Shown piece after piece: positions 1-10,844 of a stretch of DNA of 10,844 bases. Source of the DNA: a virus. Its lineage: Duplodnaviria > Heunggongvirae > Uroviricota > Caudoviricetes. The DNA is taken from positions 1 through 10,844 of IMG/VR virus record IMGVR_UViG_2537561687_000016; one strand, 5' to 3'. A model generated the notes under the pieces. It did no database searches and was not told the DNA's origin. It saw only the letters and a list, made by a program, of their open reading frames with translations. How positions within the stretch are numbered: the stretch's first letter is position 1; each line of letters opens with the position of its first letter. A program made the translations under genes and the position numbers.

Positions 1-1170
1 ATGCCCCTAAATGATATGCAGATTCGCTGTGCTAAACCTGAAGCTAAAGCCTATACACTTGGGGATGGGCAAGGGCTGTCTTTACTTGTAGAGCCAAATG
101 GAAGTAAAAGCTGGCGATTTCGTTATCGCTATGCAGGTAAACCTAAAATGATCTCGCTTGGTGTCTATCCAACGATCACACTTGCTGAAGCTCGTTCCCG
201 TCGTGATGAGGCCCGAAAAATAGTGGCTGAGGGAAAAAACCCTAGTGAGGTACGAAAAGAGCAAAAACTAGCATTAAGAATTCAATCTGAGAATGCATTC
301 GAAAAGATTGCTAGAGAGTGGCATCGGATGAAGTCTTTAAAATGGTCTGCTGGGTACGCCTCGGATATTATGGAGGCGTTCCAGAACGATATTTTTCCGT
401 ATGTGGGAACTAGGCCTGTAGGAGAAATTAAACCGCTAGAGCTGTTAAATGTACTGCGTAAAATTGAGAAGCGTGGCGCATTGGAGAAAATGCGAAAAGT
501 ACGGCAACGTTGCTCAGAAGTTTTTCGATATGCCATTGCCACCGGAAGAGCAGAGTTTAATCCTGCCGCAGATCTGTCCAGTGCTCTCGAAGTACATAAA
601 TCAAATCATTTTCCATTCTTAAAATCAGATGAGATACCTGATTTTCTGCGTGCTTTAGAGCGCTATACAGGGAGTCGACTTGTCGTTATTGCTACGAAGT
701 TATTGATGATCACGGGAGTAAGAACCATCGAATTACGTACCGCATTATGGTCAGAATTTGATTTGGATAACGCTATTTGGGAAATTCCCGCTGAAAGAAT
801 GAAAATGCGCAGGTCACATCTTGTGCCATTGTCGACCCAAGCGTTAGATTTACTTAATGAACTCAAGATAATGACAGGGAACTATCGTTATGTTTTTCCG
901 GGGCGGAATGATCCGAAAAAGCCTATGAGTGAGGCGAGTATCAACCAAGTCATCAAACGTATCGGTTATAACGGGAGAGTGACGGGGCATGGATTTAGGC
1001 ACACATTGTCTACAATATTGCATGAAGAATGTTACGATTCTGCATGGATAGAGATGCAATTAGCTCATGTAGATAGAAATAATATACGTGGTACTTATAA
1101 TCATGCTCAATATTTAGAAAAAAGAATAAGCATGATGCAATGGTATTCAAATAAATTACTTGGTGAATAA
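1..1170 (+). CDS. int: P4-family tyrosine integrase (site-specific recombinase), 389 aa
   Basis: ORF starts at window position 1 (ATG). N-terminal MPLNDMQIRCAKP...GDGQGLSLLVEPNGSKSWRFRY resembles the P4/CP4-57 integrase arm-binding region. C-terminal catalytic region HGFRHT...LAHVDRNNIRGTYNHAQYLEKR carries the conserved R/H and the RGTY tyrosine. May be preceded by an att site/tRNA outside the window. Confidence 0.9.
   Translation: MPLNDMQIRCAKPEAKAYTLGDGQGLSLLVEPNGSKSWRFRYRYAGKPKMISLGVYPTITLAEARSRRDEARKIVAEGKNPSEVRKEQKLALRIQSENAFEKIAREWHRMKSLKWSAGYASDIMEAFQNDIFPYVGTRPVGEIKPLELLNVLRKIEKRGALEKMRKVRQRCSEVFRYAIATGRAEFNPAADLSSALEVHKSNHFPFLKSDEIPDFLRALERYTGSRLVVIATKLLMITGVRTIELRTALWSEFDLDNAIWEIPAERMKMRRSHLVPLSTQALDLLNELKIMTGNYRYVFPGRNDPKKPMSEASINQVIKRIGYNGRVTGHGFRHTLSTILHEECYDSAWIEMQLAHVDRNNIRGTYNHAQYLEKRISMMQWYSNKLLGE
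1074..1101 (+). promoter_or_regulatory. Candidate sigma70-type promoter embedded in the 3' end of int, possibly driving the cargo gene
   Basis: TATAAT at 1096-1101 with a weak -35-like TAGAAA at 1074-1079 (16-nt spacer). There is no intergenic space between int and the cargo (2 nt), so any dedicated promoter must lie inside int. Pattern match only. Confidence 0.25.
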
Positions 1171-1172
1171 TT

Positions 1173-3920
1173 ATGAATGTTGACATTAAACATTTTGAAC
1201 ACATTATTAAAGCTGCAGATGACAACTCACTAGCAATTTTTGTCGGAGCTGGGGTATCTAAATCAGCGGAGAATGATACAACCAAATTACCTACATGGTC
1301 AGATTTGATCGAAGAGTTAAAAATAGATCTTGGTATAACCTATGAATTAGATTACCTGAAAGTGGCACAATTATATTTTTTAGAATTTGGTCCTCATACT
1401 TACTATAAGAAAATCAAAAAGTATTTCCCTGACAATCTTGTTCCATCTAAAATACATGAATTAATTTTTGGGATAAATCCGCATTATGTAATTACTACAA
1501 ATTGGGATTGTCTGCTTGAGACTTCGATGTTAGAAAATGCATATATTTATGACTTGGTTTGCAGTGATCAGGATCTAATGAAATCAAGCCTTGATAAAAA
1601 ACTTATTAAAATGCATGGTGATTTCAAGAATCATAATATAGTTTTCAAAGAAGATGATTACATCAATTATGAATTTAATTTTCCATTGTTGTCGAATTAT
1701 ATAAAGAGCATATTATCAACTCACACAATAATTTTTATTGGCTATTCTTATAGTGATATTGATATTAAGCAAATAATAAAATGGGCTCAAAATCATACAT
1801 CGATACGCCCTCCAATGTATTTGTTGGTGTATGAAAATGACGTTGTGCAAAGTCGGTACTTAGCAAGTCATGGTGTGCAGACTCTCATGGCAGGAGATTA
1901 CAATGGTGGTGGGTATTCTGATTATCGAACTAACAAATTATATGGTTTTCTGAAGTCAGTAAAAGATAAAAAAGTTAGTAGTAGTGTTGATAAAAGTGTA
2001 ATTAATATTGTTTTTGCAAAGTTAGCAGAGCTTGGAACATTAAATGCAATATTAGCCGATCAGATTACTAGTTGTTTAGGTGAATGTTATATAGTTTATC
2101 GTGAGGTTGAAAATCGTCAGGTTGCATTATTAAAGTTCTATAGGAATGAAGCAACTCAGTTACAAAATGCAGAGCTCAGAGAAATTTATGCTAAATTTAA
2201 AAGAATTATAAAGACTAGCGATGATACAGGAGAGCATAGAAACTTACTTGGACCAATATTTGATATATTACAAAAAGCAGATATTGCTGGTGTAATCTGC
2301 GACGATGAAGACAAAGAAGCTGTTTTGACTCGTGATATGGCAACAACTCCTGTGAGAAAAAAAGCAGTTGAGGTTTTTAGGTTTGATTATAATAATAAAT
2401 TTGATTTTAGTAAAAAAAATAAATCAATTATGAATTTAAGCTTCGATAAAACAGATCCTTATCTATTTTATCAGCAATGTGATTTTGAAATGGCTTATCA
2501 TGCGGTTGATATTATAATTAAGCATGAGTTGAAGCATAAAAACTATGCCTCATTACTTATATCCCTTTTAAACCATAATATGATTTTACATGTTTTAAAA
2601 AATAGTTTTTTTCACAGGCGAGATAATTTCAGCGATTCAGAATCTTATGATATTAATGAGAGGTTTGACAACTTTCCAAAAAACGTGAAGAGATCACTAT
2701 CTACTTTGTTAGATATTGTTAATGTTGATTATATGTTCAAGTTTATACATTCTGTAGATAAGATACTAACAAAAAATAAAGATAGAGAAGATAAGAAGAC
2801 TTTTTTTTACTTGGATGCTGAAGAGTATAAAACTGATTTTGTTCATAAAAATATACTTTACTTCATAAAAGAAAATGGTTGTCTTGTTGATAACTATTCT
2901 GAGTTTAAATATGCTATTAATAAGATATTTGAGATAAAGGCTACAAAGCAAAAATCACAGGTAAATAATGATTCGATATTGTTTTCATTAGAGGAATTAT
3001 ACTCTGCAATTAAGTATTTAGAAAGTAATAGCCTTAAGGAAAAATTCAAATATAAAAAGAGAAATAAATATCTGAAGTTAGAATTAGATAGTGAAAGTGC
3101 AGAATGGTTGTTGAATCATGCTTTCAAGGAGTTGAGTCAGTTTTATAGAGAGAAAAAAGGAGTAGGTAATTATCATTTGGAGTCATTTAAAAATGCACTT
3201 TATCTTTTAGCCTTTTCTGATGAAAGCCATAATGATAAGGAATTGATTTATAGAGAGTTAATTGGCTTGGTTAGTGGTGATTACAATCAACTCGATTTTA
3301 TTGATTGCATTACTGAATATGTGACAATCTGTTTTAATAATAAAGGGAAGATAGATTTAGAGTTTATAAGAGGTTTGATGAATGGTTTGATTGAAAATTA
3401 TTCGTCATCAACAATTAAACAGAGACGCTACTTCAATAATATATTGAACTCTGCACGTAATATTTTCATCATTGCTAATGAGTTAGGTTTATCATTTGAT
3501 AATCATGTCTTATTGAAGCAATTATTATCGTCGGTAAATGATTGCGAATCTATCGAAAAAATTAGAACTGTAGAAACCATTATTTACGAACTTTTTATTG
3601 TTGGGGATGAACTGACTAAGAAAATGATAAAGGAGTTTATTAGTTTACTTGATATAGAACAATTTGGACACGATAAAAAAATCAAGTTTAAACTTTTTTT
3701 ATTGGCTGCTAGCATAATTGAAAAAGATGATCGTATAGCTAATGATACTCTTACTATGATTAAAAATTTATCCAAGAATAAATTTAGTTCGGAATTGTAC
3801 TCAATGAGAAATACACTCGAATTTTTAGTTAATAATAAAAAGATGCAGGAATTTTCTGAATCTTATGACGAAATAAAAAAAGTGATCTCACTTTTAGAAA
3901 ATAAATATCTAAGTCATTAA
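1173..3920 (+). CDS. SIR2-like (SIR2_2-type) domain protein, 915 aa, with large C-terminal domain of unknown function; candidate single-gene anti-phage defence protein (DSR-like)
   Basis: Complete ORF, ATG 1173 to TAA 3918-3920. N-terminal approx 230 aa show SIR2-like hallmarks: Rossmann FVGAGVSKS (res 23-31), TWSDL, ITTNWD with Asn110 (nt 1500-1502), KMHGD with His148 (nt 1614-1616), FIGYSYSDID (res 188-197). No Walker A or other catalytic motif seen in the remaining ~650 aa. Strongly AT-rich versus the flanking backbone. Confidence 0.75.
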   Translation: MNVDIKHFEHIIKAADDNSLAIFVGAGVSKSAENDTTKLPTWSDLIEELKIDLGITYELDYLKVAQLYFLEFGPHTYYKKIKKYFPDNLVPSKIHELIFGINPHYVITTNWDCLLETSMLENAYIYDLVCSDQDLMKSSLDKKLIKMHGDFKNHNIVFKEDDYINYEFNFPLLSNYIKSILSTHTIIFIGYSYSDIDIKQIIKWAQNHTSIRPPMYLLVYENDVVQSRYLASHGVQTLMAGDYNGGGYSDYRTNKLYGFLKSVKDKKVSSSVDKSVINIVFAKLAELGTLNAILADQITSCLGECYIVYREVENRQVALLKFYRNEATQLQNAELREIYAKFKRIIKTSDDTGEHRNLLGPIFDILQKADIAGVICDDEDKEAVLTRDMATTPVRKKAVEVFRFDYNNKFDFSKKNKSIMNLSFDKTDPYLFYQQCDFEMAYHAVDIIIKHELKHKNYASLLISLLNHNMILHVLKNSFFHRRDNFSDSESYDINERFDNFPKNVKRSLSTLLDIVNVDYMFKFIHSVDKILTKNKDREDKKTFFYLDAEEYKTDFVHKNILYFIKENGCLVDNYSEFKYAINKIFEIKATKQKSQVNNDSILFSLEELYSAIKYLESNSLKEKFKYKKRNKYLKLELDSESAEWLLNHAFKELSQFYREKKGVGNYHLESFKNALYLLAFSDESHNDKELIYRELIGLVSGDYNQLDFIDCITEYVTICFNNKGKIDLEFIRGLMNGLIENYSSSTIKQRRYFNNILNSARNIFIIANELGLSFDNHVLLKQLLSSVNDCESIEKIRTVETIIYELFIVGDELTKKMIKEFISLLDIEQFGHDKKIKFKLFLLAASIIEKDDRIANDTLTMIKNLSKNKFSSELYSMRNTLEFLVNNKKMQEFSESYDEIKKVISLLENKYLSH

Positions 3921-3984
3921 AGTAACTTTTATGATTTTTTATTATCGATAATTGCAGCAATTATAAGATGAGCGTTAGTGCGCA

Positions 3985-4003
3985 GTGCTTTCCCCGCCTC
4001 GCC
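3985..4003. other. cos site core (P2/P4-type 19-nt cohesive end sequence)
   Basis: GTGCTTTCCCCGCCTCGCC at 3985-4003 is the exact reverse complement of GGCGAGGCGGGGAAAGCAC, which I recall as the 19-nt cohesive end of P2/P4. Immediately followed by a GC-rich stem (4003-4008 pairing with 4017-4022) and TTTT. Confidence 0.7.
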
Positions 4004-4104
4004 CGCCCGCTTTGCGGGGCGGTTTTAATGCAGTTGCACTGACACGCTCAGGCCGTGCCGGGCGTGGCCTGGTATACAGAAAATGAGGCAGGAAAACGCA
4101 TGCA

Positions 4105-4137
4105 AAGCCATGCACCTTATCGATGCATGGCTTTTTT
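4105..4137 (+). terminator. Rho-independent terminator-like hairpin (plus-strand orientation)
   Basis: AAGCCATGCA (4105-4114) pairs with TGCATGGCTT (4124-4133), 9-nt loop, followed by a T-run (4132-4137). Lies between cos and the 3' end of psu, positioned to stop read-through from the int/cargo side. Confidence 0.5.
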
Positions 4138-4167
4138 CAGTAAAAACGGGCGGATTTTCGGGGAATT

Positions 4168-4740
4168 TTACACAGACTGACGTGATGCCAGTTGCGCACT
4201 TTTACGCGAAAAAATCATGTTCTGCGCAGGAGTGAATTTTTCACGGCTGTCATCCACCGAAGCCGCGTCAGGCCTGAATCCGATGGTCGTTAAAATGTCG
4301 CTATCCTGTGCGGAATAATTAATTTTTTCACCCTTCGCAAGCCAGGACAGAAGGGCTTCACGCAGGGCATCTGTGGCACGCTGTATGGCACAGTTTCGGG
4401 CAATGGCCGTCAGCTCACTGTAGCCCATCAGCTCCGGTGCCAGTGCCGCCGCCAGTGCTGTGCCGTGCTGCTGCATAAAATCATTCAGCCGGTCGCGGAT
4501 GCTGATGTGCTGAACGGCTTCATGCGAACGAATATAACGACCGGCGGCCTGATTCACCTGCCATTTTCTGACTTCGATAATATTGCGTAATTCGTCCAGG
4601 CGACTGACGTTTCTGCCTTCTCCTGACAGAAGCCGCAGATATTCCTGTTCGGCCGCTGCCAGCTCATTTTTGCGTTGCAGCCATGCTGCTTTGTTATTCT
4701 GACAGGTGTCAAAGGCCTGCTGTAAGGCTGTGCTTTCCAT
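4168..4740 (-). CDS. psu: Psu-like polarity suppression / capsid decoration protein, 190 aa
   Basis: 190-aa ORF, same length as P4 Psu; N-terminus MESTALQQAFDTCQNNKAAWLQRKNELAAAEQEY matches my recollection of P4 Psu. Last gene of the minus-strand sid-delta-psu operon. Confidence 0.85.
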   Translation of the reverse strand: MESTALQQAFDTCQNNKAAWLQRKNELAAAEQEYLRLLSGEGRNVSRLDELRNIIEVRKWQVNQAAGRYIRSHEAVQHISIRDRLNDFMQQHGTALAAALAPELMGYSELTAIARNCAIQRATDALREALLSWLAKGEKINYSAQDSDILTTIGFRPDAASVDDSREKFTPAQNMIFSRKSAQLASRQSV

Positions 4741-4813: not shown

Positions 4814-5314
4814 TCATTCCAGACGCAGCGAATATGATTGTGTTTTTAACCGTACTGGCGGCAGTTCCTGTTTTTCATGCAGGCGTTCTGCCAGTTCGTC
4901 CGGCGTGACCGGGCGGACAATGAAGCGGTTGATGGTCTGAAGCGTTTTAAACACCAGACCACAGCCCGGATCCGTGCACACATAAAAACGCTCGGTGACT
5001 TCCTGAGACAGACGCCGCGATGTTCTTGACAGTGCAAGGCCTTTACATCTCCGACAACAATATCCGGTAACAAGCATTCTTTTCGGGCGTTTCATACTGC
5101 CGGAGGCTGACGTCAGTGAATCGCGGTATCTCTGTTTGCCTGAAATGTATTCCATTCCTGAATCTTTACTGTCAGAGAAAAAGCTTTCACTCGCTTCAAA
5201 TGTCGCAGAGCAATAAATATTCCGGCACTGTGCAATCATTATCTTGGTGCCATCGTCCATGAAATGTGCGCGACGGGTGTGAGCAACATGTCCACACGAC
5301 GGGCAGTAAATCAT
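4814..5314 (-). CDS. delta: Delta-like late transcriptional activator (tandem Ogr-type zinc fingers), 166 aa
   Basis: 166 aa, same length as P4 Delta. Two Cys-rich Ogr-like modules (MIYCPSCGH...C...C and CRRC...CTDPGCG). Start codon overlaps the sid stop (ATGA at 5311-5314). Confidence 0.85.
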   Translation of the reverse strand: MIYCPSCGHVAHTRRAHFMDDGTKIMIAQCRNIYCSATFEASESFFSDSKDSGMEYISGKQRYRDSLTSASGSMKRPKRMLVTGYCCRRCKGLALSRTSRRLSQEVTERFYVCTDPGCGLVFKTLQTINRFIVRPVTPDELAERLHEKQELPPVRLKTQSYSLRLE

Positions 5315-6044
5315 GACAGCAGTCCTCTGGCCTTAAGCTCTGCTCCCTGCTGGTCTATTTTGTCCTGCCACACCTTGCGCTGTGCCGGTGTGCCTGCCAC
5401 CTCATAATCCATGTGCGGGAGTGTTGCCGCTGACAGTCCGGTCAGCCGGAGAACCGGCTCGCCGGTGAGGCTGATTTGCATCTGTTTAATTTTCTGTTCC
5501 AGCGATGATTTCACCTGCTGCATGACAGCCTTTTCCGGTGCGACGTAGCCCTGATGGCCGGTGGTGTTGGCGAGCGGATTTTCCTGTACCAGAATGCTCA
5601 GATGCATTGCCCGGACAAGCGCCTCACAGGTTTCATTCAGGGCGTGTTCCAGCTCATGCTCTGCATACAGACTCAGAAGGTGATGATGTGCCTTCCGGTA
5701 GGCGGTGGCCGTGCTGTCACACGCCCCTTTCAGGCGTTCCGTTCAAAATTCAGCACCACGGCCAGATTGTCATATTCCTGTACCAGCTCCCGGCGTGCCA
5801 CGCGCTCAATGTGGCGCTGTTTCAGCTCGTCGCTCAGGACACCACCGGCTGCACGAAAGGCCGTGCGCCAGTCGTCAGCGTCGTTTCCGTCGGCCTGCGC
5901 CAGCGCATTTTTTTCCTGCTCTGCCCGTTCAATGGCCGTGACGGTCTCATCCATCAGGCGGGCGTTCTCAAGATGGGCGGCTCTGGCCTTTTCCAGTTGT
6001 GCCAGTGCGGGTTGCAGATATTCAGGGATGGTGTTGTCAGACAT
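5311..6044 (-). pseudogene. sid: sid-like capsid size determination gene with an apparent 1-nt frameshift (two ORF fragments)
   Basis: N-terminal fragment (ATG at 6044-6042 with AGGAG RBS, to TGA at 5732-5730) begins MSDNTIPEYLQPALAQLEKARAAH. C-terminal fragment continues in another frame to TGA at 5313-5311. Total span 734 nt, one short of the 735 nt needed for a 244-aa Sid plus stop. Frame switch lies around 5725-5740. Confidence 0.6.
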
Positions 6045-6116
6045 TTTCCGGCTCCTCGTCACTTCAGGTTAAGAAAATTGTGACGTACACCGGACAACAA
6101 CACGACGCATTGCAGA

Positions 6117-6596: not shown

Positions 6597-6863
6597 ATGC
6601 AAGCTGTTTTTTCTTCCCCGTCTCCCGCCCCTGTGACGCCACTGATGCCGCTGCCGGACATCACGCAGGAGCGTTTTTTACGTCTGCCGGAAGTGATGCA
6701 CCTGTGCGGCCTGTCACGCTCGACCATCTACGAACTCATCCGTAAGGGGGAATTTCCGCCGCAGGTGAGTCTTGGCGGTAAAAATGTGGCCTGGCTGCAC
6801 TCTGAAGTCACCGCATGGATGGCCGGACGCATTGCCGGACGCAAACGGGGGTACGACGCATGA
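6597..6863 (+). CDS. vis: Vis-like (AlpA-family) small HTH DNA-binding regulator/excisionase, 88 aa
   Basis: 88 aa, same length as P4 orf88 (Vis). HTH-like core [27 protein letters not shown] typical of AlpA/Vis regulators. GAGG RBS at 6586-6589. Confidence 0.8.
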
Positions 6864-6898: not shown

Positions 6899-6928
6899 TT
6901 GCCTTTTTCCGGCATTTGCGGATATAGT
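6899..6928 (+). promoter_or_regulatory. Candidate sigma70 promoter (P_LE-like) for the immunity/early operon
   Basis: TTGCCT (6899-6904), 18-nt spacer, TATAGT (6923-6928). A perfect 7-bp hairpin follows at 6935-6954 (GCTGCCG / CGGCAGC). Pattern match only. Confidence 0.35.
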
Positions 6929-7249
6929 TTTTCCGCTGCCGCAAAATCGGCAGCCGGGCGTGAGAACCCGAGTAAGTCAAAGGCGACATATGACGCGCCA
7001 TGCGTCTTTTTTTGTGTCGCAATCAACGCCACAGAGCGCCAGATTATGGTGTGGCGTGTGGTTTGCCGTGCAGGTATGATCCTGTTCGCAATCGCATGTT
7101 ATGCCACTGAGTCAATGGTAGCTCAGGCGGGGCAGCCTCCGGGCTGGCCGGTATCCTATGACGCCGGTATTCTCACCCCCGTCTGGGCTATCGCCATCGA
7201 GCGTGAGAACTCCGGCGATAGCGTTATTTGCTACTCAGGAGGCTGCCTT

Positions 7250-7447
7250 ATGGCTACAACCCTTACCCCCTCACACCCTGAATTTGTCTTTGTGTTTGCG
7301 GCTGTCCGTCGCGCAGACCGTCATCCCCGTATCTGCATGCTTCGCACCGTCGCCGGTGATGAACGCAGCGCCCGCCGTTCCCTTGTCCGTGACTATGTGC
7401 TCTCCCTTGCTGCCCGTCTGCCGGTGGTGGAGGTGTCCCGTGCGTAA
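7250..7447 (+). CDS. Small hypothetical protein of the P4-like early operon, 65 aa
   Basis: ATG at 7250 preceded by AGGAGG (7236-7241). This is the 3' 65 codons of the 210-aa track ORF, whose upstream part overlaps vis, the promoter and structured leader and is unlikely to be coding. Identity not recognised. Confidence 0.45.
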
Positions 7448-7727
7448 TAAAAAAGCCCCTCAGACCGTCTCAGCACGTCATGACGCCCGTGAACACCTCA
7501 GCATTGAGGCTTACCATAAGCTCAACCGCGCCAGCGCCGTATCCCAGTTTGTTGGGGGTGATTTGATTCACCGTGAACTCTCCGGCCTGCATCAGCTCTA
7601 CATTCCGCATATTTTCAGCTACCTGAATGAAGATATTGATTTTGTGCTGAATGAGCTGAAAGCCAAAGGCCTGTGCCGCGATTTTCTCGCCCAGCAGAAA
7701 GACCGGGGAGACAGGACGCATGTTTGA
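7440..7727 (+). CDS. Small protein, 95 aa, possible epsilon-like helper derepression protein (tentative)
   Basis: GTG at 7440 preceded by GGAGGTG. Overlaps the previous stop by 8 nt and ends in ATGtttTGA overlap with the next gene. 95 aa fits my uncertain recollection of P4 epsilon. An in-frame ATG at 7395 without RBS is an alternative start. Confidence 0.4.
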
Positions 7728-8175
7728 TTTTCCCCAGCCCGGTGAGATTTACCGTTCTGCCGGTTTTCCCGATGTGGCCGTGGTCGGCATTCTGGAAGAC
7801 GGTATTCCGTGGGAAATGCCGTACCGCTGCCCGGACATTGTCTGGAACCCGTACCGCCGTAAATTCAGTATCCTTGTGCGTATCCTCGCTGACGGGCGCA
7901 CCACAGACATCCCGCTGGGGCGTTTTCTGCGGGAATTTACCTGTGACCGTCCTGACCTGTTTAAACGCAGCCCCGTAAACCGGCATGCGGTACTGAAAGA
8001 AATGGCCGGAGACCCGGAATTACAGAAATGGCGGGAGAAATATCTGGATATTTACCCGCAGGACACTGTTCCGGTCAGCCGGGCAGCACCGGTGGCGCGG
8101 GAATGGCGGGAAATTCCCCGCACGGAGCCTGACCCGGAAACCACCCCGGATAACAGTTACCGCAATTATCTGTAA
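7720..8175 (+). CDS. P4 orf151-like hypothetical protein, 151 aa
   Basis: 151-aa ORF immediately upstream of the alpha region, with GGGGAG RBS. Length and position match P4 orf151. Function unknown. Confidence 0.7.
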   Translation: MFDFPQPGEIYRSAGFPDVAVVGILEDGIPWEMPYRCPDIVWNPYRRKFSILVRILADGRTTDIPLGRFLREFTCDRPDLFKRSPVNRHAVLKEMAGDPELQKWREKYLDIYPQDTVPVSRAAPVAREWREIPRTEPDPETTPDNSYRNYL

Positions 8176-8310: not shown

Positions 8311-8631
8311 ATGAAAACACCCTTACCGCCCGTCTTACGCGCTGCCCTTTACCGTCGCGCTGTCGCCTGTGCCTGGCTGACCGTGTGCGAACGTCAGCAC
8401 CGCTACCCGCATCTCACCCTTGAATCACTGGAGGCGGCCATCGCCGCTGAGCTGGAAGGCTTTTATCTGCGCCAGCACGGTGAGGAAAAAGGGCGTCAGA
8501 TAGCCTGTGCCCTGCTGGAAGATTTAATGGAATCCGGCCCCCTGAAGGCCGCGCCGTCGCTGTCCTTTCTCGGGCTGGTTGTGATGGATGAACTCTGTGC
8601 CCGTCACATAAAAGCGCCGGTACTGCACTGA
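8311..8631 (+). CDS. P4 orf106-like hypothetical protein, 106 aa
   Basis: 106-aa ORF with GGAGG RBS (8298-8302), ending 14 nt before the alpha start. Length matches the P4 orf106 name; position assignment is from memory and uncertain. Confidence 0.6.
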
Positions 8632-8645
8632 AGGAGAACAACACC

Positions 8646-10844
8646 ATGAAAATGAACGTAACCGCCACCGTCAGCCATGCGCTCGGCCACTGGCCGCGTA
8701 TTCTCCCGGCGCTGGGGATTCAGGTGCTGAAAAACCGTCATCAGCCCTGTCCGGTCTGTGGCGGGAGTGACCGCTTCCGTTTTGATGACAGGGAGGGGCG
8801 CGGCACCTGGTACTGCAATCAGTGTGGTGCCGGTGACGGCCTGAAACTGGTTGAAAAGGTGTTTGGTGTTTCCCCGTCCGACGCGGCCGCAAAGGTGGCT
8901 GCCGTGACCGGCAGCCTGCCCCCGGCTGACCCGGCAGTGACGGCTGCCGCCGGTGCTGAAACAGACGCTGCCCGGAAGAACGCCGCCGCACTGGCACAAA
9001 CCCTGATGGCAAAAACCCGTCCCGGAACCGGTAACGCCTACCTGACCCGCAAGGGCTTTCCCGGCCGGGAATGCCGGATGCTGACCGGCACACACAGAGC
9101 CGGTGGCGTGAGCTGGCGCGCCGGTGACCTTGTGGTGCCACTGTATGACGACAGCGGCGAACTGGTTAACCTTCAGTTAATCAGTGCTGACGGCCGTAAG
9201 CGCACCCTGAAAGGCGGACAGGTCAGGGGCACCTGTCACACCCTTGAAGGACAGAATCAGGCCGGAAAACGTCTGTGGATAGCGGAGGGATACGCGACCG
9301 CACTTACCGTACATCACCTGACCGGTGAAACGGTGATGGTGGCGCTTTCTTCCGTGAACCTCCTTTCTCTGGCCAGCCTTGCCCGGCAGAAGCATCCGGC
9401 CTGTCAGATTGTCCTTGCCGCAGACCGTGACCTCAGCGGTGACGGCCAGAAAAAAGCCGCCGCAGCCGCAGATGCGTGTGAGGGCGTTGTTGCCCTGCCG
9501 CCGGTCTTCGGTGACTGGAATGATGCCTTCACGCAGTACGGCGGGGAGGCCACCCGTAAGGCCATTTACGATGCCATCCGGCCACCGGCTGAAAGCCCGT
9601 TCGACACCATGAGCGAAGCAGAGTTTTCCGCCATGAGTACCAGCGAAAAGGCCATGCGTATCTATGAGCATTACGGCGAGGCGCTCGCGGTCGATGCCAA
9701 CGGCCAGCTTCTGTCCCGTTATGAAAATGGTGTCTGGAAGGTGCTGCCGCCACAGGACTTTGCCCGGGATGTGGCCGGGCTGTTTCAGCGTCTGCGCGCG
9801 CCGTTCTCCTCCGGGAAGGTGGCCTCCGTGGTGGACACCCTGAAGCTGATTATTCCGCAGCAGGAAGCCCCCTCCCGCCGCCTGATTGGCTTTCGTAACG
9901 GCGTGCTCGACACGCAGAACGGCACGTTCCACCCGCACAGTCCGTCACACTGGATGCGCACCCTGTGCGATGTGGATTTCACCCCGCCGGTGGACGGTGA
10001 AACGCTGGAAACCCACGCCCCCGCGTTCTGGCGCTGGCTTGACCGTGCCGCCGGTGGCCGTGCGGAAAAACGCGACGTGATTCTGGCCGCACTGTTTATG
10101 GTGCTGGCAAACCGCTACGACTGGCAGCTCTTTCTGGAGGTGACCGGTCCCGGCGGCAGCGGCAAAAGTATCATGGCCGAAATAGCCACCCTGCTGGCCG
10201 GGGAGGATAACGCCACGTCGGCCACCATTGAGACGCTGGAATCCCCGCGTGAACGTGCCGCGTTAACTGGCTTCTCACTGATACGCCTGCCGGACCAGGA
10301 AAAATGGAGCGGCGACGGTGCCGGACTCAAGGCCATCACCGGCGGCGATGCGGTGTCCGTGGACCCGAAATACCGGGATGCGTACTCCACGCATATCCCG
10401 GCGGTGATTCTGGCCGTGAACAATAACCCGATGCGCTTCACCGACCGCAGCGGCGGCGTGTCACGCCGGCGGGTGATTATTCACTTCCCGGAACAGATAG
10501 CCCCGCAGGAGCGCGACCCGCAGCTTAAGGACAAAATCACCCGCGAGCTGGCGGTCATCGTGCGTCACCTGATGCAGAAGTTCAGCGACCCGATGCTCGC
10601 CCGGTCACTGCTTCAGTCCCAGCAGAACTCAGACGAGGCGCTGAACATCAAACGGGATGCCGACCCGACGTTTGATTTTATCGGCTATCTGGAAACCCTG
10701 CCGCAGACCAGCGGCATGTATATGGGGAACGCCAGTATCATCCCGCGTAATTACCGTAAATACCTCTATCACGCCTATCTGGCTTACATGGAGGCAAACG
10801 GCTACCGGAATGTACTCAGTCTGAAAATGTTCGGGCTGGGGCTG
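8646..10844 (+). CDS. alpha: Alpha-like primase-helicase (zinc-binding N-terminus, Toprim primase, D5/SF3-type helicase), 3'-partial (733 codons in window)
   Basis: ATG 8646 with AAGGAG RBS. I translated the frame by hand over the N-terminal ~280 codons and the last ~250 codons and found no stop; the middle section was not checked codon by codon. This ORF is absent from the supplied track, presumably because it has no stop within the window. Motifs: CPVCGGSDRFRFDDREGRGTWYCNQCG, Toprim-like WIAEGYATALTV and VLAADRDLSGDG, Walker A GPGGSGKS (approx 10146-10169). P4 alpha is 777 aa as I recall, so about 44 codons are missing. Confidence 0.9.
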   Translation, partial: MKMNVTATVSHALGHWPRILPALGIQVLKNRHQPCPVCGGSDRFRFDDREGRGTWYCNQCGAGDGLKLVEKVFGVSPSDAAAKVAAVTGSLPPADPAVTAAAGAETDAARKNAAALAQTLMAKTRPGTGNAYLTRKGFPGRECRMLTGTHRAGGVSWRAGDLVVPLYDDSGELVNLQLISADGRKRTLKGGQVRGTCHTLEGQNQAGKRLWIAEGYATALTVHHLTGETVMVALSSVNLLSLASLARQKHPACQIVLAADRDLSGDGQKKAAAAADACEGVVALPPVFGDWNDAFTQYGGEATRKAIYDAIRPPAESPFDTMSEAEFSAMSTSEKAMRIYEHYGEALAVDANGQLLSRYENGVWKVLPPQDFARDVAGLFQRLRAPFSSGKVASVVDTLKLIIPQQEAPSRRLIGFRNGVLDTQNGTFHPHSPSHWMRTLCDVDFTPPVDGETLETHAPAFWRWLDRAAGGRAEKRDVILAALFMVLANRYDWQLFLEVTGPGGSGKSIMAEIATLLAGEDNATSATIETLESPRERAALTGFSLIRLPDQEKWSGDGAGLKAITGGDAVSVDPKYRDAYSTHIPAVILAVNNNPMRFTDRSGGVSRRRVIIHFPEQIAPQERDPQLKDKITRELAVIVRHLMQKFSDPMLARSLLQSQQNSDEALNIKRDADPTFDFIGYLETLPQTSGMYMGNASIIPRNYRKYLYHAYLAYMEANGYRNVLSLKMFGLGL

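Follow-up and report, generated by a model that had tools for sequence, protein, structure and literature searches.

A P4-type cos site beside a SIR2-domain cargo gene in an Escherichia coli satellite prophage

The window analysed here is a stretch of DNA of 10,844 nt in which a long gene with a SIR2 domain ends shortly before a sequence that resembles the cohesive ends of phages P2 and P4. Does this sequence mark a packaging site, and does the SIR2 gene belong to an element that a helper phage can package? The initial annotation had given an affirmative answer to both questions. This interpretation is right in substance. It is also already in print, as all its parts are contained in Rousset et al. 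2022 (PMC9122126) and a 2026 study (PMC13586616) has since extended the work on the P4 hotspot to thousands of elements. The interpretation thus holds nothing new: The site is an ordinary P4-type cos located exactly where published work puts it, beside a swappable anti-phage slot. The value of the analysis is one of annotation: It establishes which element is present, where its packaging site and the edge of its cargo slot lie, and that the cargo is likely DSR2-like. The sole mildly new item is the full-length DSR2-like fold predicted for the cargo family. The following features are referred to below.

1-1170, plus strand: int, P4-type tyrosine integrase, 389 aa (Pfam Arm-DNA-bind_3, Phage_int_M, Phage_integrase)
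1173-3920, plus strand: SIR2-domain cargo gene, 915 aa (Pfam SIR2_2)
3921-3977, no strand assigned: AT-rich, cargo-specific spacer from the SIR2 stop codon to the cos core
3978-4032, no strand assigned: cos core of 55 bp common to P2 and P4, presumed recognition and cleavage site of a P2-type terminase
3985-4003, minus strand: 19-nt cohesive end GGCGAGGCGGGGAAAGCAC, single exact match with 0 mismatches
4003-4026, plus strand: GC-rich inverted repeat followed by TTTT, a pattern match inside the cos core
4104-4137, no strand assigned: strong hairpin (AAAGCCATGCA...TGCATGGCTTT) located between cos and the stop codon of psu; T6 run on the plus strand
4168-4740, minus strand: psu, intact, 190 aa (Pfam Psu, E = 1e-88)
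4814-5314, minus strand: delta, intact, 166 aa, Ogr/Delta activator of helper late genes (Pfam Ogr_Delta)
5311-6045, minus strand: sid, frameshifted (translations and alignment with P4 and strain 120899)
6597-6863, plus strand: orf88/vis, AlpA-type excisionase and regulator (Pfam Phage_AlpA)
6922-7198, plus strand: P4 immunity region (Rfam matches above the gathering score)
7440-7727, plus strand: epsilon, helper derepression protein (Pfam Derepression, E = 2e-49)
7720-8175, plus strand: orf151
8311-8631, plus strand: orf106
8646-10844, plus strand: alpha primase-helicase (Pfam Zn_Ribbon_Prim, Toprim_3, D5_N, Pox_D5)

Gene content and the cohesive end

The gene content identifies the window as a P4-like satellite prophage of E. 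coli. Read in reverse orientation, it follows P4 (NC_001609) gene by gene. Pfam matches and colinearity place all core genes, int, psu, delta, alpA/vis, epsilon and alpha, in the P4 order. The alpha frame stays open to the end of the window, which alone truncates it (733 of ~777 aa). The immunity region is intact. Rfam detected the C4 target sites a1/b1 at 6922-6974 (c4-a1b1, 51 bits), isrK at 6935-7012 (71 bits) and the C4/CI RNA at 7111-7198 (75 bits, above the gathering score). The initial annotation had listed sid, psu, delta and alpha as present. This holds for psu, delta and the truncated alpha, but sid is not intact. It carries a 1-nt deletion at about 5739/5740 (GAACG-GAACG vs GAACG[C/T]GAACG) that shifts the reading frame after approximately codon 101. 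The deletion is apparent in alignments with both P4 and the closest E. coli genome (strain 120899), and none of 975 complete E. coli genomes with the same stretch shares it. Therefore, either this copy has acquired a private mutation or the sequencing was in error here.

A pattern search found GGCGAGGCGGGGAAAGCAC once in the window, on the minus strand; the plus-strand reading of 3985-4003 is GTGCTTTCCCCGCCTCGCC. The sequence is identical to bases 1-19 of the P4 record (NC_001609 / X51522) as well as to the sequence annotated as 'cosL; left cohesive end' and 'cosR; right cohesive end' in P2 (NC_001895). Consequently, the 19/19 match proposed earlier is real, and the P2 cos sequence on which it was based is correct. 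The spacing is also confirmed: The cargo stop codon occupies 3918-3920, and cos begins 65 nt downstream, at 3985. BLAST against phage records aligned P4 11624-11448 to window positions 4004-4180 with 94.9% DNA identity across cos and psu. The last base of P4 (11624) corresponds to 4004, with the right end of P4 running from 4004 upward and its left end from 4003 downward. This means that the last base of the P4 record abuts its first base at 4003|4004 and that the window contains a closed (joined) cos junction.

Could a GC-rich 19-mer match by coincidence? In shuffled sequence, 0.01 matches are found on average even when up to 3 mismatches are tolerated. In addition, the flanks are homologous to the cos flanks of P4 and P2, and the P4 gene context extends throughout the window. 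A chance origin is virtually impossible on these grounds and was rejected. Cleavage of this cos would presumably follow the geometry established for P2 and P4, with a minus-strand nick at 4004|4003 and a plus-strand nick at 3984|3985, which would leave 5' overhangs at 3985-4003. In strain L65, a satellite with a Gabija-like cargo (locus L124, ~5015-5035) has one substitution inside its cohesive end of 19 nt (GTGCTCTCC...). The overhang itself is thus subject to natural variation.

The cos core and two hairpins

The cohesive end is embedded in a core composed of 7 nt on the cargo side, the 19 nt themselves and 29 nt on the psu side with TTTTAATGCA at the end. A cos core of about 55 bp is given in PMC9594776, where Ziermann & Calendar 1990 is cited for it, and the same extent was reproduced here from the sequences. 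To this end, 122 regions with the exact 19-mer (120 IMG/VR loci, P2, P4 and the window) were extracted and classed by their neighbour, with psu denoting satellites and Q denoting P2-like phages. Both classes have kept the same block: TGCATTAAAACCGCCCC...AAGCGGGCG (29 nt, psu or old side), the 19-mer and YGCGCRC (7 nt, other side). The cargo-side variant TGCGCAC is present in 3 of the 20 satellite-class regions, among them the window.

The comparison with the P2 and P4 cos regions, suggested as a check in the initial annotation, revealed an identical 19-mer and a core identity of 53/55 between window and P4 and 52/55 between window and P2, the latter value also applying to P4 vs P2. With P4 (NC_001609 / X51522), the window shares in addition 38 nt on the psu side (4004-4041, identical by inspection) and the position of cos between psu and a non-essential region adjoining int. 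It differs from P4 by two substitutions in the 7 conserved cargo-side nt (GTGCGCA in the window, GCGCGCG in P4), by the SIR2 gene at the slot where P4 has gop-beta-cII and by its integrase, a thrW-type 389-aa protein. In contrast to P4, P2 (NC_001895) lacks similarity outside the core, and the match of P2-like phages to the window is limited to about 3977-4045. Within the core, P2 deviates in two loop bases of the inverted repeat (CA vs TG) and one cargo-side base. SIR2 satellites of Salmonella and Klebsiella carry a 16/19 cos variant, GGCGTGGCGGGGAGAGCAT. P2-like phages of Klebsiella, Yersinia, Erwinia and Salmonella match these satellites in the region of the cos core.

A GC-rich hairpin with a T-run had been reported to follow cos. 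The pattern exists at 4003-4026, but it is not a separate feature behind cos: It constitutes the psu-side half of the 55-bp core. It is composed of CCGCCCGC-TTT-GCGGGGCGG at 4003-4022 and the subsequent TTTT. In a pattern scan of 3850-4250, it was the sole terminator-like match, and it faces the cargo gene. Might it act mainly as the intrinsic terminator of the int-SIR2 transcript and not belong to the packaging signal? Both int and the cargo are probably read into one transcript, and a stop would be needed ahead of antisense reading into psu. However, the same sequence is kept in P2, where no cargo gene reads in likewise, and cargos of P4-like elements are found in either orientation (PMC9122126). 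The folding energy of 4003-4026 is ordinary for its composition (z = -1.0 on both strands) and does not stand out from shuffled sequences. Among 103 unique related cos regions, stem pair -16:-3 is unpaired in 34% (35/103) and stem pair -18:-1 in 28% (29/103) with essentially no compensatory change or covariation, whereas the 3' arm AAGCGGGC and the TGCAT motif are nearly invariant. The Salmonella and Klebsiella satellite variants have kept the motif TTTT(A/C)ATGC and largely lost the stem. Since pairs are broken without compensation in about one third of the related cos sites, 4003-4026 is not a demonstrable terminator. Furthermore, a much stronger terminator-like hairpin is located 80 nt onward. 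A mainly terminating role of 4003-4026 is, hence, quite unlikely. From the pattern of substitutions we conclude that this segment is conserved as sequence, most simply for recognition by a protein, rather than as an RNA or DNA hairpin.

The second hairpin, 4104-4137, folds with -21.5 kcal/mol. Its z value is -4.0 on the minus strand, which is the psu strand, and -2.6 on the plus strand. The stretch is kept in P4-like elements. It is likely a bidirectional terminator that acts on psu as well as on read-through from int-SIR2 and, by this, insulates psu from the cargo operon.

Packaging, host genomes and helpers

With a probability of about 0.9, the segment 3978-4032 represents the cos of a P4-like satellite prophage and would be cut by the terminase of a P2-type helper during packaging. 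Upon excision and replication of the satellite, the helper terminase would recognize 3978-4032 and introduce staggered cuts with nicks 19 nt apart (3984|3985 and 4003|4004). The satellite DNA would then be packaged into capsids made by the helper. Once packaged in linear form, the satellite would have 65 nt between its left terminus and the 3' end of the cargo gene. The cos site marks one edge of the int-to-cos 'defence hotspot', and whichever gene occupies the slot would travel with the satellite. Such a layout is that of a textbook P4-like satellite, described systematically in 2022 and again in 2026. As far as the sequence can tell, it would place a candidate NAD-depleting defence gene on a phage satellite that helpers can package and spread.

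The claim that the defence gene resides on a packageable P4-like element can be upheld with regard to the exact cos beside the cargo in a P4-like satellite. The sequence match, its location and the surrounding genes are shown; cleavage, packaging and defence by the cargo are inferred, and sid is frameshifted. Packageability is supported by the intact cos core, by the helper-exploitation and replication genes, which are intact except for sid, and by the presence of the immunity RNA. An int-to-cos interval only slightly longer than that of P4 points the same way. The whole window matches E. coli chromosomes. A P4-like match was found in 2487 of 5426 complete E. coli genomes, and only five of them contain the present cargo. 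To look for helpers in these five carriers, places matched by a chimeric query of the SIR2 gene and the P2 Q and P genes were counted at megablast sensitivity, with the SIR2 gene alone as control. In strains 120899, 103605 and 204446, the chimeric query matched at three places each, and in the two remaining carriers at one; the control query had a single match place in each of the five genomes. Subtraction of the control indicates that three of the five carriers hold two P2-type Q/P (portal/terminase) loci each, while P2-type portal/terminase genes were not detected in the other two at megablast sensitivity. Mobilization by a P2-like helper, as suggested by the initial annotation, is consistent with the P2-type genes in these three carriers; it would be weakened by the frameshift in sid if this is real. 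The same annotation had also argued that the cargo must not block its own helper. Sparing of the helper has been proposed and tested for other P4 cargos, and only one of 18 systems (TIR-NLR) blocked P2 (PMC9122126).

Related elements are found at the tRNA-Thr gene adjoining proA, and in other strains the satellite int is located 165 nt from tRNA-Thr. Strain 120899 (NZ_CP025916, 1124500-1172000; locus L128) has a tandem array at thrW, in which the satellite is separated from tRNA-Thr by a complete lambdoid prophage as well as an AraC/IS remnant. This array could complicate excision. The neighbouring prophage was considered as helper and rejected, as it is lambdoid and not P2-like. No tRNA is present within 4 kb of the element in strain 120899, and a search for attL/attR direct repeats around it yielded only a 12-15-nt AT-rich match, probably due to chance. 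Since att repeats were not found, the exact length of the element can only be estimated by analogy with the P4 layout. In strain 120899, the distance from the int start to the end of crr amounts to 11.3 kb, and we estimate an element length of about 11.7 kb.

Alternatively, the satellite might be domesticated or decaying, no longer mobilized and retained for its defence gene, with cos as an intact relic. The frameshift in sid, the tandem array at thrW with no recognizable att repeat and the two carriers with no detectable P2-type Q/P genes would fit this scenario, as would a Salmonella relative (L131) in which psu through alpA are missing directly behind the cos core. Moreover, PMC13586616 reports that defective P4-like elements whose defence genes are intact are common. 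However, the immunity RNA and the core genes other than sid are intact here, and a frameshift absent from the 975 other complete-genome copies may be a sequencing error. A helper may also arrive by infection and need not be resident. Even a genuine frameshift would not abolish packaging, as P4 sid mutants are still packaged, though inefficiently, with three genomes (multimers) per P2-size head (PMC6893505). If the sid frameshift is real, the present element would form no small capsids and could only be packaged inefficiently as multimers in P2-size heads (PMC6893505). Taken together, a relic is unlikely, although not far-fetched, and we prefer the reading of 3978-4032 as a cos site used by P2-type helpers.

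The cargo slot and the SIR2 protein

Six elements with five cargos (SIR2, ORC/CDC6, HEPN, hypothetical and gop-beta-cII of P4) were aligned. From psu up to and including the cohesive end, similarity is complete; it terminates 5-7 nt farther on. This means that cos is the edge of the variable region. A sequence break proximal to cos is also displayed in Fig. 1A of Rousset et al. (PMC9122126), where it was speculated that the cohesive ends drive cargo exchange. In other E. coli strains, the same slot is occupied by a Gabija-like pair, an ORC/CDC6 ATPase, a HEPN protein or a hypothetical gene. The distance from the int stop to cos is 2814 bp here and 2587 bp in P4, i.e. 227 bp longer. As this interval is near that of P4, the size of the element would stay near the 11.6 kb of P4. 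The slot corresponds to the P4 int-psu defence hotspot (PMC9122126; PMC13586616) in its location, in the sharp homology break at cos and in the cargo accession, which is listed in Table S1A. There is no substantive difference; the present SIR2 protein is catalogued there and does not belong to the cloned systems.

The cargo ORF begins 2 nt past the int stop (1168-1175), and its homologues overlap int by 4-14 nt (L129 7001-7014 and L132 7001-7004). Abutting or overlapping int in this way suggests co-transcription with the integrase gene rather than an own promoter. Perhaps, translation of the cargo is coupled to that of the integrase, too.

The cargo protein is 100% identical to WP_001552601.1, which is catalogued as a single-gene SIR2_2 system in Table S1A of PMC9122126. 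It was considered whether it is the SIR2 protein cloned by Rousset et al. (pFR88), and this was rejected, as the sequences are different (PMC9122126). Neither PMC9122126 nor the main text of PMC13586616 contains an experimental test of WP_001552601 in defence.

Sequence models recognize only an N-terminal SIR2 domain (Pfam SIR2_2). PADLOC returned only ThsA-type SIR2 models and PDC candidate models for residues 9-207; no DSR model was among its matches, and NCBIfam yielded nothing. The best solved relatives are B. subtilis DSR2 chains, which align with cargo residues 8-293. The SIR2 domain is homologous to that of DSR2 (E ~1e-34). H148 aligns with the catalytic H171 of DSR2 and the motif TTNWD with TTNYD of DSR2. 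Residues N110, D112 and H148 are invariant in 43 homologues. An AlphaFold (AF2) model computed from the 43-sequence alignment has a mean pLDDT of 82. When it was compared with the PDB using Foldseek, the top 44 matches were all full-length DSR2 chains (TM 0.54-0.68, E ~1e-23). The model predicts that the cargo adopts the fold of DSR2 (defence sirtuin) along its whole length, with a SIR2 domain and a helical sensor domain. The likeness to B. subtilis DSR2 comprises the N-terminal SIR2 homology, the catalytic His and the predicted whole-length fold. In contrast, overall identity is just 16-18%, the C-terminal sensor region has no similarity detectable by sequence, and curated DSR sequence models do not recognize the cargo. 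We regard it as a candidate DSR2-like SIR2 NADase. DSR2 is reported in PMC11087589 to sense the phage tail tube protein and to deplete NAD+. By analogy, this would be a reasonable working model for the cargo.

Cargo homologues with 40-45% identity are found in the same int-SIR2-cos-psu arrangement in satellites of Salmonella (L129 7001-9920) and Klebsiella oxytoca (L132 7001-9958). Across genera, the satellite backbone is much more conserved than the cargo, as exemplified by alpha with 84%. Homologues with this identity occur in three genera in the same slot and orientation, abutting int and combined with different cos variants. This raises the speculation that the DSR2-like sirtuin is a long-standing partner of P4-type satellites, the sensor of which has co-evolved to ignore, or even to read, the structural proteins of whichever P2-type helper matches the satellite. 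If this were true, the sirtuin might tolerate the tail tube of the helper and fire on competitors. We consider such a co-evolution very doubtful at present. In the Salmonella copy in L131 (9709-10058), psu, delta, sid and alpA are lost by a deletion that begins just past the cos core. The SIR2 gene is left adjoining orf106 and alpha, an example of a decaying satellite that has kept its defence gene.
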